A stretch of DNA of 40,275 nt from an uncultured archaeon. Its GTDB lineage: Archaea; Aenigmatarchaeota; Aenigmatarchaeia; CG10238-14; SCSR01. The notes under the pieces are model-generated. The model saw only the letters and a program-made list of their open reading frames with translations. It was not told the origin of the DNA and did no database searches. Location of the stretch: positions 1 through 40,275 of the forward strand of contig CAYRSM010000004.1 in NCBI GenBank assembly GCA_964427125.1, read 5' to 3'. Each line of letters opens with the position of its first letter. Position 1 is the stretch's first letter. Shown piece by piece: positions 5,381-38,358 of this stretch. The translations under genes and the position numbers were made by a program.

Positions 5381-6772
5381 GTGGAAAGGCACAGGTTGGA
5401 GAGGGATGTTCTGGGCGAGGTGAAGGTACCTTCCGATGCCTATTACGGCTCATGGACACAGCGCGCGATTGAGAATTTTCCCGTGTCGGGATTGAGGATT
5501 TCCGGAAAGTTCATCAGGGCGTACGTCATAGTGAAGCGTTCGGCGGCACTGGCAAACATGAGAATCGGCAAGCTGGATGGAAAAATCGGCAGCTCTATAG
5601 TGAAGGCGTGCGACGAGATGCTGTCGGGCAAGCTCTTAGACCAGTTCGTAGTGGACGTATTCCAGGCCGGTGCCGGCACCAGCACGAACATGAACGTGAA
5701 CGAGGTGATAGCCAACAGGGCAATCGAAATTCTGGGAGGGAGAAAAGGAGATTACAACATAGTTCATCCGAACGACCACGCCAACATGTCACAGTCCACG
5801 AACGACACCTTCCACACCGCCACGCACATAGCGGCGTACCTTGCGATACGTGACGGCCTTTTGCCGGCACTCCACAATCTTGAAAAATCATTTTCTAAAA
5901 AATCCGAGGAGTTCGCAGCCATGCTGAAGATTGGCAGGACTCATCTTCAGGATGCCGTGCCGATGACTCTGGGTCAGGAATTCTCGGCTTACGCCTCTGC
6001 TGTCGGGAATTCTGCCAAAAGGCTGGACTTGGCGAAGGATGCTCTGCTGGAGCTGGCAATAGGCGGCACCGCAGTCGGCACCGGTATAAACGCAGGGCCT
6101 GATTACGCCAAAAATGTCCTGGGGGAGATAACCAGGTACACTGGAGTGAAGTTCGAATCATCCAAGAATCTTTTCACCGCCATGCAAAACCAGAACGTCG
6201 AGTCGGGAATAATGGGAGCTGTCAAAAATGTGGCTGTTGCGCTGAACAAGGTTGCGAACGATTTGAGATTGTTGAGTTCTGGGCCGCGCGGCGGATTGGG
6301 GGAGATAACCCTGCCAGAGGTGCAGCCAGGTTCTTCCATAATGCCGGGAAAGATAAATCCCAGCGTTCCGGAGATGTTCGGCATGGTCTGTTTTGAGATT
6401 ATGGGAAATGATGTTACGGTGTCGACAGCCGCACAGTCGGGTCAGCTCGAACTTAACGTCTTCATGCCGATAATCGCGCACAACCTGCTATACTCGATTG
6501 AAATTCTGGCCAACGCAACAAAAATCCTGGACGAAAAGTGCGTGAAGGGCATAAGGGCGAACAAGGAGAGGCTGGAGGAGAATATCGAGAGAAACCTTTC
6601 GTTGGCAACTGCACTCGTGCCTCACATCGGCTACAGCAAGTCGGCTGATGTGGCGCGGAAGGCCTACCTGGAGGGCAAGACAATCAGGCAGGTCTGCATA
6701 GAGATGAATCTGTTCAAGGAAAAGGAGTTGGACAAGATTCTGGACGCTAGGAAGATGGCTGGGATAGGCTGA
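5381..6772 (+). CDS. class II fumarate hydratase / aspartate ammonia-lyase
   Basis: GSSIMPGKINP signature, GRTHLQDA, QSTND. FumC versus AspA cannot be resolved by eye. Confidence 0.92.
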   Translation: MERHRLERDVLGEVKVPSDAYYGSWTQRAIENFPVSGLRISGKFIRAYVIVKRSAALANMRIGKLDGKIGSSIVKACDEMLSGKLLDQFVVDVFQAGAGTSTNMNVNEVIANRAIEILGGRKGDYNIVHPNDHANMSQSTNDTFHTATHIAAYLAIRDGLLPALHNLEKSFSKKSEEFAAMLKIGRTHLQDAVPMTLGQEFSAYASAVGNSAKRLDLAKDALLELAIGGTAVGTGINAGPDYAKNVLGEITRYTGVKFESSKNLFTAMQNQNVESGIMGAVKNVAVALNKVANDLRLLSSGPRGGLGEITLPEVQPGSSIMPGKINPSVPEMFGMVCFEIMGNDVTVSTAAQSGQLELNVFMPIIAHNLLYSIEILANATKILDEKCVKGIRANKERLEENIERNLSLATALVPHIGYSKSADVARKAYLEGKTIRQVCIEMNLFKEKELDKILDARKMAGIG

Positions 6773-6781
6773 TTTATCCGG

Positions 6782-7069
6782 TCAGAGTCTTGGCTCGAAC
6801 CCGAACGAAACCCTGAATTTGTTCCTGTCCTCGGCTATGATGAAACCCTTCGGTTTGATTTCGCTCACGACCATGCCTGTTCCGGTCTTGACCATGGTTA
6901 TCAGGTCCTGTCTGGCAAGATACTCCAGTGCTTTTTCCACACGGACCGTTTCAAGCTTGTTCCTCTCGGACAGTTCCTTTTCATCAATGTCCAGTTCCCT
7001 TGCCCTCGAGACTGAGAACCTCTCGTGCAGGTATATCATCAGGGTGCCCGCGTCCTTCTGTATTCCCAT
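6782..7069 (-). CDS. small winged-helix-like protein
   Basis: 95 aa. VEKALEYLARQDLI..IKPKG resembles a wHTH. Confidence 0.6.
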   Translation of the reverse strand: MGIQKDAGTLMIYLHERFSVSRARELDIDEKELSERNKLETVRVEKALEYLARQDLITMVKTGTGMVVSEIKPKGFIIAEDRNKFRVSFGFEPRL

Positions 7070-20359: not shown

Positions 20360-21838
20360 TTAACCAGTGGTAAGGAAGCTCCACCACGGTGCAACCTCGA
20401 CCATGACCGTCCCGTTGCCCGCATCCGCTGTTACATCCTTTTCCACCTCTGTTGCAAAAAGGCCCAGCAGTTTCCTGTTCTCCGCCGCCTTTATCTTGTA
20501 GACAGCCGTGTCGTTCATGTTCTCCAGCGCGACAGACTTGGCCTTCATCCTTATCTTGTTTAGGACATCGCTAGCCGCCATCTTCACGGCGGCGTTCCCC
20601 ACGGTCAGTGTGCCGTTCACTATCGACACGCCTGATGTGCTGACGTTAAGGTCCTTGTCCCTGATGATCACGTTTTCCTCGGACGGCTCTATGGCAAGGA
20701 GGCTGTTGTTGACGTCAATCGTCACCTGCTTTCCTATCGTGTTTACTCGTACGTTGTCTGCGGTTATCGCTCCTGGCGTGACATTTATCTCGTCCACTAC
20801 GCCGCTGACCTCTGTGGTCGACAAGGAATCCCTGCTCTTTATGAGGTTTTCAATCATAGAGTCTATGTTCTTCCTTAATTCCTTCAGGCTGCTTATCTGG
20901 CTGTCTATGCTCCCCGAGGACGTTATCTTCTCTATAGCACTCTTGTAATAGTTGCTGATGCTGGCGCCGGAGTCGGCCATAATCGCAGAAGGCACCGATA
21001 TGTTTGCAGCAGCGTGCATTTCGCCCGTTCCGGACACACCGGACGACACAGTTTTTCCGGTGCAACTGGCCTTGATTCTTTCTATGTTTGTGTTAAGCTC
21101 GTTCAAAATCGACAAGACCTCGTCCCTGCTAGAATAACCCTTGTTCTTCAGCGCATCGTCCGACATGGCATACAGTCCTTTGTAAAAGGCGTACTTCGAC
21201 TCCCACTGGGAAACCTCACCGCAGCTGACTGTCGGCACACTATGCGAAGATGTGGCGCCGGCCTTTGCAGTCGCAGGCGTTGTTTGGCCAGAGCCTACGG
21301 AGTTGCATTTGTCCCTGTAGTTTGAAATCTCCTGTTTGAGCCCGATTATCTTGCTGGTCGCGTAGCTGGCTGTAGTATTGTCGCTCTCGTTGTTTGCTGC
21401 CGCAAGTCTGTTCATTAGCTCATTGTACTCCCTGAAAAGCGACTCGACCATCCTGCATGCAGCGGAGTTGTCCCAATCCTGTGTAGGGACAAGTTTTACA
21501 ACCGGCGCAGGTATCTGTGTGGGCAAGCCGGCGGTGGTGTTCGCTGGCACTGTTTGAGAGGGTGTTGTGTTCGCATAAACCGGGCACGGGTAGAACTCGC
21601 AATTCGCGCCGGGGTTCCTAGTAACGTAGCTGCCGTCCGGACACTGTTTGGCATCTGCTGTGCAAACTGACATGTTGCTGGAAGATGGCATTGTGGATGG
21701 AACAGGGACGGTGATCGCAGTGGCGGCCGCGGTCGTGTTGGTGATTGTCGCCGAATCGTTTGCAGCATCCTGGGCAAGAACCGAACCAGAAAACAGGATT
21801 ATCGATGTCAGGAATAGAACAATGATTGCGTGCTTCAT
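20360..21838 (-). CDS. secreted/surface protein with CTADAKQCPDGS..CEFYPCP motif
   Basis: Signal peptide, Thr/Pro-rich linkers, many NxT/S sequons, C-terminal PWWSFL. Confidence 0.75.
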   Translation of the reverse strand: MKHAIIVLFLTSIILFSGSVLAQDAANDSATITNTTAAATAITVPVPSTMPSSSNMSVCTADAKQCPDGSYVTRNPGANCEFYPCPVYANTTPSQTVPANTTAGLPTQIPAPVVKLVPTQDWDNSAACRMVESLFREYNELMNRLAAANNESDNTTASYATSKIIGLKQEISNYRDKCNSVGSGQTTPATAKAGATSSHSVPTVSCGEVSQWESKYAFYKGLYAMSDDALKNKGYSSRDEVLSILNELNTNIERIKASCTGKTVSSGVSGTGEMHAAANISVPSAIMADSGASISNYYKSAIEKITSSGSIDSQISSLKELRKNIDSMIENLIKSRDSLSTTEVSGVVDEINVTPGAITADNVRVNTIGKQVTIDVNNSLLAIEPSEENVIIRDKDLNVSTSGVSIVNGTLTVGNAAVKMAASDVLNKIRMKAKSVALENMNDTAVYKIKAAENRKLLGLFATEVEKDVTADAGNGTVMVEVAPWWSFLTTG

Positions 21839-21862: not shown

Positions 21863-23044
21863 TTATAAAGATGCCGCCGCCTTCTTCAGCACTTCCGCCT
21901 TGTCTGTCTTCTCCCACGTAAAGTCGGGGTCGTTCCTTCCAAAGTGGCCGTAACATGCAGTCTTCTTGAATATGGGCCTCCTGAGCTTCAGGTCCCTGAT
22001 TATGGCTCCGGGCCTCATGTCAAAGTTCTTCTTCACAATCTCGGTGAGCCTCTCGTCGGGGACCCTCCCCGTGCCGAAGGTGTCAACGTAGACAGAGACT
22101 GGGTGCGCCACACCTATGGCATAGGCTATCTGGACCTCGCACCTCTCGGCAAGTCCGGCAGCGACTATGTTCTTGGCGATGTACCTTGCCATGTAAGAGG
22201 CGGAGCGGTCTACCTTTGTGGGATCCTTGCCGCTGAAACACCCTCCTCCAGACCTTCCCATGGCACCATAACTGTCAACGACTGTCTTCCTGCCCGTTAG
22301 TCCCGAATCTGCCAGTGTGCCGCCTATGACGAACCTCCCAGTGCCATTGACTATGAACTTTGTGTCCTTGCCCATCATCTTCTCCGGGATGACCTGCTTT
22401 ATGACCTTCTCAACGATGTCCTTCCTTACCGTTTCTATGTTCGCGGAATCGCCGTGCTGTGCGGCTATCACCACGGCATTGACATTTACTGGCTTGTCGT
22501 CCACATACTCTACCGTGACCTGCGACTTCCCGTCCGGCCTGAGATAAGGAAGTATCTTCTTTTTCCTGCACTCCGCAAGCCTCATCACGAGCTTGTGGGC
22601 CAGCACTATCGGCAGGGGCATCATCTCCGGGGTCTCGTTGGTGGCATAGCCGAACATAAGGCCCTGGTCGCCCGCCCCTATGTCAAGGCCCTTGCTCTCG
22701 TCAACGCCCCTGGCAATGTCCGGGGACTGCTCCTCTATGGATGTGAGCACCCCGCAGGTCGCCCAGTCCATGCCGTCCTTTGCGTTGTCAAGGCCTATCT
22801 CCTTGAGGGTGTTCCTGACAATGTTCGGGACGTTCACGTAGCTTGTGGTGGTTATCTGCCCCGTCAGGACGGCCATCCCCTGCATTATGAGGGTCTCGCA
22901 GTCCACGTGGGCGTCGGGGTCTTTGGCTATAATTGCATCTAGGATGGAGTCGGAAACCTGGTCAGCCACTGTGGACACGCATTACAGCGTTTTGTCCGGG
23001 TGACCTTCCGCAACGCTCTCTGATGTGAACAGGTATCTCTTCAT
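21863..23044 (-). CDS. metK: S-adenosylmethionine synthetase, bacterial/eukaryotic type, interrupted by a 21-nt intron (exons 23044-22992 and 22970-21863)
   Basis: ATG 23044 gives [18 protein letters not shown], then an insert reading TL*CVST, then VADQVSD. Downstream motifs [15 protein letters not shown] and YGHFG are intact. Spliced product is 386 aa. Confidence 0.93.
22971..22991 (-). other. putative BHB micro-intron in metK mRNA (AACGCTGTAATGCGTGTCCAC)
   Basis: GGAC/GTCC 4-bp helix, bulges AAA and ACA, inner stem ACGC/GCGT with the stop codon in the loop. Cutting after the 2nd nt of each bulge gives GAC AAA GTG GCT. Confidence 0.85.
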
Positions 23045-23047
23045 TGG

Positions 23048-23851
23048 TCAATGCCCCCTTTCAAGGCATTTTTCGTAGTTAATATATTTCCTTCCTAAAT
23101 ATAAATTTGTATCCTTGTAAATCCAGTCGGCCAAGACACTCGCTCTTTTGCATGTGTACGGCAGGCTGAACGTATTTTTATGATGCGTTCTGACTCTGGA
23201 AGAAACACCAATGCTATTTTTCACTGCATTTTCAAGTTTGTCCAAGAATTTCTTAGATCCTGAAAATATGATAATCCTGAAATATGGGCTTCTTTTCCTG
23301 TCGAAGTATGATATACTGCCGTCTCCGTCAATGACGCCTCTGATGAAATCCGGTAGCACTTCTTTTGGTATGTCCGGGAAATCGACTACAAGAGATTTTC
23401 TGGGGATTACACCCAGTTTAATCAGATCTTCGCATATTATCCTGTTCGCAACTGTCAGCCTGTATGATTTTGTTTTGGGCGAGTAGAGAAGCTCCTTGCT
23501 GCTTCCGAGAATGTTTCTTATCCTTTCCAAATGGCTAAAATCTTTCTCGGATTGCGTTATGGTCAGTGTCCAACGGGATTCCTCAGGCTTATAGCTGACA
23601 TTTCCGTCGGTAAAAACAAACCCCAAGATGTAGCTCATCTCCCTTGTAAATTTCTTGAAGAAATGCTCGTTGACTGTGTTTTTCTTAATCTCTATCCCTA
23701 GCTCTTTCCTGTAACGGTTGACCGTAGTCTTCCCGATTTTTAGCTTTCTAGCCATTTCCCGTTCCGATATAACGCCAAAATTGCCACTTATATAATCCAG
23801 ATAAAATGCCTTGTTGTGACCAAACTCCTTACTCAACAGCGTCTGGGCCAT
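23048..23851 (-). CDS. free-standing LAGLIDADG endonuclease with N-terminal HTH
   Basis: YILGFVFTDG and FIRGVIDGDG motifs, EREMARKLKIGKTTVNRY HTH. Lower GC than flanks. Stop lies 3 nt before the metK ATG. Confidence 0.88.
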   Translation of the reverse strand: MAQTLLSKEFGHNKAFYLDYISGNFGVISEREMARKLKIGKTTVNRYRKELGIEIKKNTVNEHFFKKFTREMSYILGFVFTDGNVSYKPEESRWTLTITQSEKDFSHLERIRNILGSSKELLYSPKTKSYRLTVANRIICEDLIKLGVIPRKSLVVDFPDIPKEVLPDFIRGVIDGDGSISYFDRKRSPYFRIIIFSGSKKFLDKLENAVKNSIGVSSRVRTHHKNTFSLPYTCKRASVLADWIYKDTNLYLGRKYINYEKCLERGH

Positions 23852-36504: not shown

Positions 36505-37497
36505 TCAGAACCAGATGGACCGCACCTCGTCTACCCTCCATTTGGGTGTTATCTTTTCCGTAAAGTCTGGTTTCCATCCCGACCTGTGCGCCAGCATGCC
36601 GGTCCAAGCTATCATCGCGCCCTGATCGCCACTGTACTCGGTAGGGACAATGTGTACCTTCGCTCCCCTTTCCTCGGCCATGACACCGACCATCTCCTGA
36701 AGCCTCTTGTTTGCCGCAACGCCGCCCACAAGCAATACCTCCTTCTTTTCCGTGTGCGCGAGCGCCCTCTCCACGACCTCTGTGAGCATCGCAAAGCACG
36801 TCTCCTGCAGCGAGAAGGCTACGTCCTCCCTGACCGCACCTTTCTTCAGCAGCTTTATCGCGGCGGTCTGTATACCGCTGAATGAGGTGTCCATACCCTT
36901 CACAACATAAGGAAGCTCTATGTATTTCCCCTTTATTGCCAGCCTTTCAATCTCCGGGCCCCCCGGCATGGGAAGCTTCATCTCCCTGGCAACGACATCG
37001 AAACAGTTTCCCACGGGGACGTCTTCAGTTTCACCAAACACTCTAAAAAAATTTTCTGCATACGCAACCACCATCGTGTTGCCGCCGCTCAGGTAGAGGT
37101 AGACCGGGTCTTTTGTGTTTGTCATGAGCCGCCCGATTTCTAAGTGTGCGACTGAGTGGTTCACTGGAATTAGCGACTTTTTGTGCAACTTTGACAGGTT
37201 GATTGCAAAATCTGCTCCCTTGTTGAGGCAGGGAGGCAACCCCGGTCCAGCGGAGTAGCTTAGAATGTCGATGCCATCCCAACCGAGACCAGACTTTTCC
37301 AAAGCTCGATTTAATATTTTTTCTCCGACTGCTTGGTGGTGCGCCGCGGCCTCGTGCGGGATGATTCCCTTGCCCAAGGCTGGCCTGTACATATCGCGTT
37401 CATTAGCCAAGATTTTCCCGTCTTCCGTCACTATGCCGATGCCGAAGGTGTGTGCCGTACTTTCTATGCCGAGGCACACTAGTTTGCCGTCTAGCAT
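36505..37497 (-). CDS. kae1: tRNA t6A synthase Kae1 (KEOPS complex)
   Basis: LGIESTAHT, HSVAH, SGGNT, GGVAAN, DQGAMIA motifs. Confidence 0.95.
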   Translation of the reverse strand: MLDGKLVCLGIESTAHTFGIGIVTEDGKILANERDMYRPALGKGIIPHEAAAHHQAVGEKILNRALEKSGLGWDGIDILSYSAGPGLPPCLNKGADFAINLSKLHKKSLIPVNHSVAHLEIGRLMTNTKDPVYLYLSGGNTMVVAYAENFFRVFGETEDVPVGNCFDVVAREMKLPMPGGPEIERLAIKGKYIELPYVVKGMDTSFSGIQTAAIKLLKKGAVREDVAFSLQETCFAMLTEVVERALAHTEKKEVLLVGGVAANKRLQEMVGVMAEERGAKVHIVPTEYSGDQGAMIAWTGMLAHRSGWKPDFTEKITPKWRVDEVRSIWF

Positions 37498-37544
37498 AAA
37501 TAACAAGTGAGATTTGCCTGTTTAAGATTTTAATAAAAAAGGAG

Positions 37545-37657
37545 TGGGACGGAGGAGATTTGAACTCCCAACACTTCCCGGGTCTTTCAGACCTATCGGT
37601 CTTCAGCATCAACGGACTCTCGTCCTCGATTGCTCTCCCGGATTGAGCTACCGTCCC
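37545..37657 (-). tRNA. tRNA-Phe(GAA) with two non-canonical BHB introns (37608-37626 at 30/31; 37575-37594 at 43/44)
   Basis: Acceptor GGGACGG/CCGTCCC, D-stem GCTC/GAGC, T-arm GGGAG-TTCAAAT-CTCCT. Removing 19+20 nt gives a 74-nt cloverleaf with ATCGG-CTGAAGA-CCGAT. Confidence 0.9.
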
Positions 37658-37676: not shown

Positions 37677-38315
37677 TCATTTTGAAGAACTTATAATTTC
37701 ATAAGCTTTTCGCAGCTTGCGAGGATTTGAAAAACCGATATCTGATAGCCATTTTTTAATCATTTTCATGCCATAGAGAGCTATCTTGTAAGTCTTGGTT
37801 CCGTATCTTTTGTCGATGTAGTGTCTAGTTCGAATTCTGTATCCTCTGGCAGTCAACACTTCGGTTAATTGCAGTGCCAAATTTTGGCTCGTGGTTGTTA
37901 TTTCCAGACTCGGATAGTTGGGACTTCCCGCTTTTTGAGAGGTGAATATTGAACCGTCTGTGTCGGCGATTCCCCTTATGATGTATTTTAATTTTTTCCA
38001 GTTCTTCAAAAACATCGTGGGTATGCGTATTGTGAAACATTTTCCCTCTCCGACGGGCAAGCCAATCTCATCAATAAGCGAAGTTATCAATGTCTTTGAA
38101 TGGAGTCTCAGTCTCAAGCCGCCGGAATAAGTTTTGATTTGCGGGCGCTTTTTCGCTACATGAAAAATGATATTGCTTATGTGGTCGAAATATTTCATGT
38201 CTGTTTTGGGATTGCCTGTAATCATCAGGACATACTTCGAGCCATTTCTAAAGTATATGTTTCCGTCACCGATTGTTATTCCTATCAGTTCGCAAAGTTC
38301 TTTTGTAACTAACAT
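37677..38315 (-). CDS. free-standing LAGLIDADG endonuclease
   Basis: ELIGITIGDG and IIRGIADTDG motifs, C-terminal IGFSNPRK, low GC. Ends 19 nt before tRNA-Phe. Start ATG 38315 or GTG 38342. Confidence 0.88.
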   Translation of the reverse strand: MLVTKELCELIGITIGDGNIYFRNGSKYVLMITGNPKTDMKYFDHISNIIFHVAKKRPQIKTYSGGLRLRLHSKTLITSLIDEIGLPVGEGKCFTIRIPTMFLKNWKKLKYIIRGIADTDGSIFTSQKAGSPNYPSLEITTTSQNLALQLTEVLTARGYRIRTRHYIDKRYGTKTYKIALYGMKMIKKWLSDIGFSNPRKLRKAYEIISSSK

Positions 38316-38358
38316 ACCTGAAATAACTATGGCACGAAACACTATCCCCTTTTGGGGT

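Follow-up and report, generated by a model that had tools for sequence, protein, structure and literature searches.

The metK locus

The stretch of archaeal DNA analysed here (40,275 nt, hereafter the window) carries on its minus strand a metK gene, with its ATG at 23044, in which the catalytic MetK motif is interrupted. Read straight through, seven extra codons (TL*CVST) stand between the K and the V of the motif; GHPDK and VADQ are separated by 21 nt with an in-frame TAA. The genome of the window is labelled G000, three genomes of the same genus are G001, G002 and G003, and other G-numbers denote the remaining genomes compared. The parts of the locus are as follows, the splice point being marked ^ here and below.

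22992..23044, minus strand: metK exon 1, 53 nt (ATG...GGACAA), 17 residues plus the first two bases of a Lys codon; aligns with the N-terminus of the intronless G001 gene
22971..22991, minus strand: candidate bulge-helix-bulge (BHB) micro-intron, 21 nt, with in-frame UAA; sequence A ACGCUGUAAUGCGU GUCC AC; ends set by the splice rule
21863..22970, minus strand: metK exon 2, one base plus 368 codons and a stop codon; the first base, A, completes AA^A (Lys) and VADQVSD follows; assigned by profile match and purifying selection

Exon 2 matches TIGR01034 at 536 bits over profile positions 15-376 (NCBIfam-type profile search) and is matched by three of three Pfam MetK domains, and no further lesion was found across its 368 codons. 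An initial annotation of this DNA had described a 21-nt insert with an in-frame TAA splitting the motif of an otherwise undecayed gene, and both the translation and the profile matches of exon 2 agree with that description. Its proposal that cutting after the second base of each bulge yields DKVADQ in frame also held, as the rule removes exactly 22971-22991. It had further expected automated annotation to call the gene truncated, which is plausible: the open reading frame (ORF) list of the window shows only a 371-aa ORF, starting at a GTG within the insert (22978), from which GHPDK is absent.

Predicted fold and cut sites

The minimum free energy (MFE) fold of 56 nt around the insert consists of a 4-bp central helix (GGAC/GUCC), bulges AAA and ACA, an inner stem ACGC/GCGU and a 6-nt loop, reproducing the helix, the two 3-nt bulges and the inner stem drawn by the initial annotation. 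The elements, in the order of the transcript, are as follows.

23000..23005, minus strand: outer helix, 5′ strand GGUCAC, in exon 1, with CC between the outer and the central helix (MFE fold)
22994..22997, minus strand: central helix, 5′ strand GGAC, lying in exon 1 (G from the third position of the Pro codon, then GAC) (MFE fold, covariation of 16 alleles)
22991..22993, minus strand: 5′ bulge AAA, predicted cut after its second base, between 22992 and 22991 (frame restored in 17/17 alleles)
22977..22990, minus strand: inner stem-loop ACGC-UGUAAU-GCGU (helix h′) (MFE fold; 8/8 inner pairs change on both sides)
22973..22976, minus strand: central helix, 3′ strand GUCC, intronic (MFE fold, covariation)
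22970..22972, minus strand: 3′ bulge ACA, predicted cut after its second base, between 22971 and 22970 (allele comparison)
22960..22969, minus strand: outer helix, 3′ strand, in exon 2; the MFE fold of G000 uses GUGGCU, and the register common to the other alleles uses (C)UGACC

The metK insert has the two 3-nt bulges on opposite strands, with a 4-bp helix between them, that define a BHB motif. Symmetric cuts in the bulges restore a functional reading frame, and the product is identical to the junction of the intronless G001 gene. The predicted spliced junction joins GGACAA to AGUGGCU (...CCGGACAA^AGUGGCU...) and encodes D-K-V-A. Searched with Rfam at the gathering score, the whole window gave 0 matches, to ribozymes or to any other curated RNA family, and a group I or group II intron was rejected for want of such a match. 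An insert of 21 nt is also too short for a ribozyme.

Alleles at the same site in related genomes

If the insert is an intron, intronless alleles might be expected among related genomes. The G001 metK gene is uninterrupted and reads GGACATCCGGACAAAGTGGCTGACCAG (DKVADQ), which is exactly the predicted junction; the metK genes of G010 and G024, from other genera, are also uninterrupted. G002 carries a frame-shifting insert of 26 nt at the metK site and G003 one of 24 nt at the same site.

Across the phylum, a MetK motif split by 15-45 extra bases was matched in 15/371 genomes, belonging to nine genera and several families, and the reversed pattern used as a control gave 0 matches. G002 is the sixteenth interrupted genome among the 371, and falls outside the pattern since its exon 2 reads D-L-V. 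The intact motif was matched in 114/371. Among 80 named genome loci, 79 are uninterrupted and one, in a Micrarchaeota metagenome-assembled genome (L172), has a 78-nt insert at the metK site. All 80 of the metK loci taken from metagenome contigs are uninterrupted (best identity 73%), adding no further alleles. The genomes of the relatives range from 0.3 to 2 Mb.

All 17 interrupted alleles, with inserts of 21 to 78 nt, regain the frame and GHPDK[VI]xDQ under the one rule, and share one layout: GGAY (or UGAC, AGAC), a 3-nt bulge, a stem-loop, GUCN, a second 3-nt bulge and exon 2. Where the insert is frame-shifting (26, 31 and 32 nt), exon 1 is in phase with exon 2 after its removal.

Two observations on the gene itself may be added. 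In G003 (contig C62; L007, L011, L013) the metK gene with the 24-nt intron lies in an open frame of 1143 aa, in which about 1.1 kb separates MetK residues 2-122 from residues 106-250, and this looks like an intein in the same gene. The closest named MetK relatives outside the group are from Bathyarchaeia (about 70% identity), followed by many bacteria (L096-L107); this bacterial-type metK may have been transferred between archaeal lineages.

Covariation, cut signature and selection

The inserts of the other alleles vary in sequence and length, and their stems compensate. In our own count over the 17 alleles, the central helix pairs in 67/68 cells and inner pairs 1-3 in 49/51. Pair 1 of the central helix, which involves the wobble base of the Pro codon, is G-C in ten alleles, G-U in three, U-A in two, A-U in one and G.A in one.

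In a MAFFT alignment of 16 alleles, 91.1% of cells are paired, compared with 27.8-42.3% when the 3′ partners are slid by 1-3 columns, and the central helix reaches 98.4%. Nine pairs have changed on both sides, and 0/500 shuffles reach the observed value on any of five measures. Kinship among the sequences inflates the strength of the shuffle result; the slid controls, in which that kinship is preserved, still score far lower.

At the third base of the 3′ bulge, 16/17 alleles have A and 1/17 has G, so that AAR (Lys) is rebuilt in every case. The two bases before it vary (AA in eleven, AU in three, AC in two and UG in one), and a constraint restricted to the third base fits a cut after the second. 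The sequence GGTCAC occurs in 14/17 interrupted alleles and in about 20/118 intact rows (counted by eye), a preference that would fit selection for the outer helix, with kinship as a confounding factor.

Between the metK genes of G000 and G002, both intron-bearing, the proportion of synonymous differences (pS) is 0.98, which is saturated, and that of nonsynonymous differences (pN) is 0.126; other pairs are alike. Judged by these values, the gene is kept under purifying selection with the insert in place.

Predicted micro-introns in other genes

Similar inserts were sought in G000 and in G001 (80 contigs, 654 kb). A BHB-like site in either genome was retained when the peptide obtained after its removal could be aligned, across the junction, with the other genome. 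The predicted micro-introns, four of them in protein genes of G000, are as follows.

metK, G000: 21 nt, junction GHPD^KVADQ
aIF2-gamma, G000 C32:1704-1727 (L272): 24 nt, junction MLG^HVSHGKT, 535.8 bits
aIF5B, G000 C22:8116-8149 (L273): 34 nt, junction TVG^HVDHGKT, 719.7 bits
RtcB, G000 C60:4269-4288 (L274): 20 nt, junction PDMHFGY^GFPIGG
Kae1, G001 L044:13617-13640: 24 nt, junction GIEGTA^HTFG, with a 7-bp outer helix
aIF5A hypusine loop, G001 L076:6506-6534: 29 nt, junction STSGK^HGHAK

The inserts in aIF2-gamma, aIF5B and RtcB bear out the earlier suggestion that BHB inserts would be found in other conserved genes of this genome, and each of the three restored motifs is contiguous in the G001 ortholog. 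The kae1 gene of G000 (window positions 36505-37506, minus strand) is uninterrupted, as is its cbf5, in which one frame of 320 aa runs through with no stop (TIGR00425, 346 bits). When sites were moved by 11 nt as a control, 0 validated matches were obtained from 18,174 candidates. Shifts of +5 or -5 were poor controls, re-finding the same loci (one or two changed residues are tolerated) and adding one unrelated match (C51).

The P-loop site of the translation factors was followed further. Nineteen introns of 20-34 nt lie at this site in 18/118 genomes of the order (L276-L293); going by the flanking peptides, fifteen belong to aIF5B-like genes and four to aIF2-gamma-like ones. GHVxHGKT is restored in all 19, with the codon split C^AY, and their inner stems covary. 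Of 20 rows, 10 have a length that is not a multiple of 3, and one of the 20 is a false parse (G124, L=57). A looser P-loop pattern matched 65 genomes across the phylum, of which about 31 look interrupted by eye; the remaining matches are intact genes caught through a chance upstream GGNCA. The introns of aIF2-gamma and aIF5B occupy the same codon phase of G^H and have near-identical helices and bulges (UCGG-ACA ... CCGA-AAA), which suggests spread between paralogous sites.

Several other candidates and screens were discarded. A screen of G000 by ORF logic only (56,654 BHB-like sites) gave 20,874 candidates with real and 21,141-21,585 with shifted sites, and after a later filter 6,969 and 6,725-7,045; it had no discrimination, and reading-frame logic alone cannot find such introns because shifted splice sites give the same numbers. 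A relaxed indel screen against G001 (any gap of at least 4 aa, loose BHB) was too noisy, and what was retained was limited to well-aligned genes whose insert carried a stop or a frameshift. A match at C2:47878 is on the opposite strand and coincides in its coordinates with a tRNA-Leu that contains an intron (ARAGORN). The candidate on contig C73 is a 16S rRNA gene read on the wrong strand and no protein gene; at about 90-210 the contig includes GGACTACCGGGGTATCTAATCC, a 16S rRNA primer-site sequence. This stretch of C73 has about 100 extra bases relative to G001, and these may be an rRNA intron.

Splicing machinery of the host genome

With a completeness of 89.7%, the G000 assembly consists of 88 contigs totalling 1.21 Mb. 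We take the host to be a DPANN-type archaeon, probably one of the Micrarchaeota. The genome encodes both the endonuclease and the ligase that BHB introns need. The tRNA splicing endonuclease EndA is on contig C11, with 189 aa matching PF02778 and PF01974 (84.8 bits), and resembles the M. jannaschii EndA (1a79) over its full length; RtcB is on contig C60. A second candidate for an endonuclease-like subunit in G000 scored only E = 0.28, which does not establish it. According to PMC5829648, DPANN lineages have EndAs of the alpha4 type that carry an extra loop, and these are linked to many disrupted tRNA genes.

The initial annotation had named an intact methionine adenosyltransferase (MAT) or metK gene elsewhere, together with relaxed selection on this copy, as a reason to doubt its reading. 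Neither a second metK nor an archaeal-type MAT (PF01941) was found in the assembly, whose incompleteness bars proof of absence.

Mechanism and alternative explanations

The 21-nt metK insert is very probably an intron removed at the RNA level through its BHB motif. Its excision is inferred from the sequence, the predicted fold, the covariation and the intronless alleles. In the proposed pathway, exonic GGAC of the metK pre-mRNA would pair with intronic GUCC, setting the two 3-nt bulges 4 bp apart and braced by the intronic stem-loop. EndA would cut behind the second base of each bulge, and RtcB ligase would join GGACAA to AGUGGCU, rebuilding the Lys codon and GHPDKVADQ. The 21-nt intron would come free, probably in circular form. 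Full MetK could be made from the spliced mRNA only, because the unspliced frame stops three codons into the insert. Synthesis of S-adenosylmethionine (SAM) would then depend on splicing, a point that rests on no other MAT having been found in an incomplete assembly.

Several observations weigh against this interpretation. The single-sequence metK fold is mildly unusual, standing only modestly above shuffled sequences (-20.7 kcal/mol, z = -1.91, with 12/200 shuffles folding equally well), and because it barely stands out, it is the comparative data that carry weight. These come from related genomes, which are non-independent samples, and include a G.A mismatch in the central helix of G003. Between the outer helix and the 3′ bulge there is an offset, with two unpaired C opposite the bulge, which makes the motif one of the relaxed (HBh′-like) form and not a strict hBHBh′. 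The outer helix is 92.7% paired among the 16 aligned alleles, and has no independent weight because it shows no double-sided change and both its strands are coding. One genome, G120 (56% complete), matches both the interrupted and the intact motif (contigs C113 and C92), which could be explained by two copies, by a bin that mixes two strains or by contamination. The sole EndA found is a single alpha-type subunit of 189 aa. Finally, the ligase gene itself appears to need splicing. It is split by the frame-shifting BHB-like insert listed above, with a central helix GGCU/GGCA that has a G.A mismatch at its outer pair; the G001 ortholog is contiguous, and the split also showed up independently, as two pieces of the gene. 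Because the RtcB gene is interrupted, an inherited ligase protein or another ligase would be implied.

Of the other ways to account for the insert, a sequencing or assembly artefact has next to no probability. In its favour stands the origin of the window in a metagenome-type assembly (88 contigs), but Logan contigs from 4/4 DNA runs that bridge the metK site hold the insert with 0 differences and 0 gaps. A search for sequencing runs containing the region found these four DNA runs and no RNA run. The four are one sample of one study (a mine drainage metagenome), possibly the source of the window itself, so they are not fully independent; an assembly slip is excluded by the separately built contigs, though the biology is not independent. 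Inserts at this site also occur in sixteen further genomes, each assembled separately from this one. Retention of the insert, with a shorter 371-aa MetK made from the internal GTG at 22978, is scarcely probable even though the GTG-initiated ORF exists. The product would be without residues 1-18, including GHPDK (exon 2 begins at position 15 of TIGR01034 and position 17 of the Pfam N-domain); exon 1 and its ATG are conserved across the alleles, and the intron sequence differs among them, so that a start within it is not conserved.

A decaying metK, with SAM or MAT obtained elsewhere, for example from a host, is likewise highly improbable. The unspliced frame does contain a stop codon, the 1.2 Mb genome is of a size seen in host-dependent archaea, a second MAT could be missed at the assembly's level of completeness, and 33/41 genomes of relatives gave no metK with this query. 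A pseudogene is nevertheless hard to reconcile with 368 codons lacking any other lesion, with the low pN relative to pS between two interrupted alleles, with one exact site in 17 genomes where compensatory changes preserve the fold and the Lys codon, and with an exon 1 that is conserved and in phase even when the insert removed is frame-shifting. Translational bypassing, in which the ribosome would leave the Lys AAA, skip the stem-loop and the stop and land on a matching codon before exon 2, is very unlikely as well. Both bulges are AAA in 10/17 alleles, where a hop from AAA to AAA gives the same protein, and the stop codon and hairpin after the take-off site can be likened to phage T4 gene 60, in which a stop codon and a hairpin stand behind the take-off site. 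Against this, 6/17 alleles have no Lys codon at the landing triplet, which is ACA in G000 and G002, AUA in G003, G184 and G185, and UGA in G215, and the unspliced take-off codon of G002 is AAU (Asn). The landing triplet is conserved only at its third base (a purine in 17/17), as fits a cut after base 2 and not codon-anticodon re-pairing. The exon-intron helix covaries, and the aIF2-gamma and aIF5B introns lie inside a codon in 19/19 cases.

Returning to RNA-level splicing, a wider proposal is that these inserts form a mobile family of BHB micro-introns homing to catalytic or nucleotide-binding motif stretches of essential genes. The sites (MetK GHPD^K; aIF2-gamma and aIF5B G^HVxHGKT; RtcB HxGY^G; Kae1 TA^HTFG; aIF5A GK^HGH) invite this proposal, which we consider speculative and rather unlikely. 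If it is true, spread between paralogous P-loops would imply sequence-directed insertion, by reverse splicing, ligation or a homing endonuclease. The two LAGLIDADG genes described below, directly upstream of metK and of tRNA-Phe, could then be partners or remnants of such a system. Since the ligase gene carries an intron as well, the splicing system would need inherited ligase protein for its own expression, a self-referential loop in which tRNA maturation, the supply of SAM and the translation factors would all hinge on the capacity to splice.

The tRNA-Phe gene and LAGLIDADG neighbours

Three further features of the window adjoin or resemble the interrupted locus.

37544..37657, minus strand: tRNA-Phe(GAA) with two BHB introns, 37608-37626 (19 nt, position 30/31) and 37575-37594 (20 nt, position 43/44) (ARAGORN)
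23048..23851, minus strand: free-standing double-LAGLIDADG ORF, 267 aa (PF14528, 39.1 bits; PF00961, 25.4 bits)
37677-38342, minus strand: second free-standing double-LAGLIDADG ORF, resembling the endonuclease parts of intein-containing proteins in NCBIfam

Neither ARAGORN at default settings nor Rfam at the gathering score found a tRNA in the window; the tRNA-Phe gene is missed because of its two non-canonical introns, and is found at c[37544..37657] by ARAGORN with introns allowed. The same cut rule as in metK removes both introns and leaves a clean, standard tRNA-Phe cloverleaf, just as the initial annotation had maintained.

The first LAGLIDADG ORF ends 3 nt ahead of the metK ATG and has a GC content of 41%, compared with 56% in its neighbours. 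It is not present at the metK-adjacent spot in the intron-bearing G002 and G003, nor in the intronless G001. Collaborative homing, with the LAGLIDADG ORF always accompanying the metK intron, is therefore not supported, as two intron-bearing genomes are without the ORF at this spot and no consistent link is seen. The second ORF ends 20 nt before the intron-bearing tRNA-Phe gene.

Relation to known introns

The BHB motif and cut rule of metK and of the window's tRNA-Phe are those of the non-canonical BHB introns of archaeal tRNA genes, reportedly surveyed by Marck and Grosjean in 2003. The metK intron differs from tRNA introns in lying in an mRNA; codons constrain the 5′ strand of its central helix, and the splice junction has to leave the reading frame intact. 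A BHB intron in an archaeal pre-mRNA, that of cbf5, is said to have been reported by Watanabe et al. in 2002 and Yoshinari et al. in 2006. The cbf5 gene of Crenarchaeota is likewise a protein-coding gene with a very short intron, often relaxed BHB borders and patchy presence among related species, and in both cbf5 and metK the intron is too short to encode a nuclease and the presumed enzymes are EndA and an RNA ligase. Splicing has been shown experimentally for cbf5 and is inferred for metK. The cbf5 case belongs to Crenarchaeota, whereas here a small-genome archaeon from mine drainage is concerned, with metK, aIF2-gamma, aIF5B, RtcB, Kae1 and aIF5A interrupted within the genus; unlike in cbf5, there are several introns per genome, and they lie within catalytic or nucleotide-binding motifs. 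Assignment to the cbf5 type was rejected, as cbf5 is intact in G000 and the interrupted genes differ. According to Yokobori et al. in 2009 (PMC2738675), cbf5 introns measure 16-44 bp, compared with 20-34 nt, and 78 nt in one case, for metK and the other genes here; the same paper suggests that the cbf5 introns may have arisen by deletion from larger, mobile ones.

The eukaryotic XBP1 and HAC1 mRNAs, spliced by IRE1 and RtcB, likewise lose a short intron in a tRNA-like cut-and-ligate reaction that needs no spliceosome and changes the frame. This reaction differs in its endonuclease, in its twin stem-loop motif and in being regulated by stress. The XBP1 intron is 26 nt long. PMC8718801 mentions RtcB-type ligation.

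An mRNA substrate outside Crenarchaeota is provided by the BHB intron in the 5′ untranslated region (UTR) of HVO_1309 in Haloferax volcanii, which Schwarz et al. in 2020 (PMC7714728) confirmed as a splicing endonuclease substrate in vivo and in vitro. In this it resembles metK, but the intron lies in an untranslated leader and the reading frame is uninterrupted (PMC7714728). The same paper states, as of 2020, that cbf5 was the only earlier example of an mRNA BHB intron. In openly searchable full text (subscription journals and supplements excluded), only cbf5 (coding) and HVO_1309 (5′ UTR) were found as mRNAs with BHB introns, and nothing on introns of metK, translation-factor, RtcB, Kae1 or aIF5A genes. 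The mechanism is thus a known one, and the novelty lies in which genes and lineage are involved, how many introns a genome has and how widely they occur.

Significance

With the predicted introns, mRNA BHB splicing in archaea would no longer concern one gene but six essential genes or more, recurrently and in a different archaeal group: the metK site is interrupted in 16/371 genomes of the phylum and the P-loop site in 18/118 genomes of the order. Gene callers will list such genes as truncated, frameshifted or missing, skewing metabolic reconstructions and completeness estimates, and tRNA counts for such genomes will come out too low. The skewed annotation feeds arguments that small-genome archaea lack core functions. 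The introns also offer a testable case of obligatory mRNA splicing in a prokaryote, with a ligase gene that would depend on its own activity, and their sites hint at how such introns spread.

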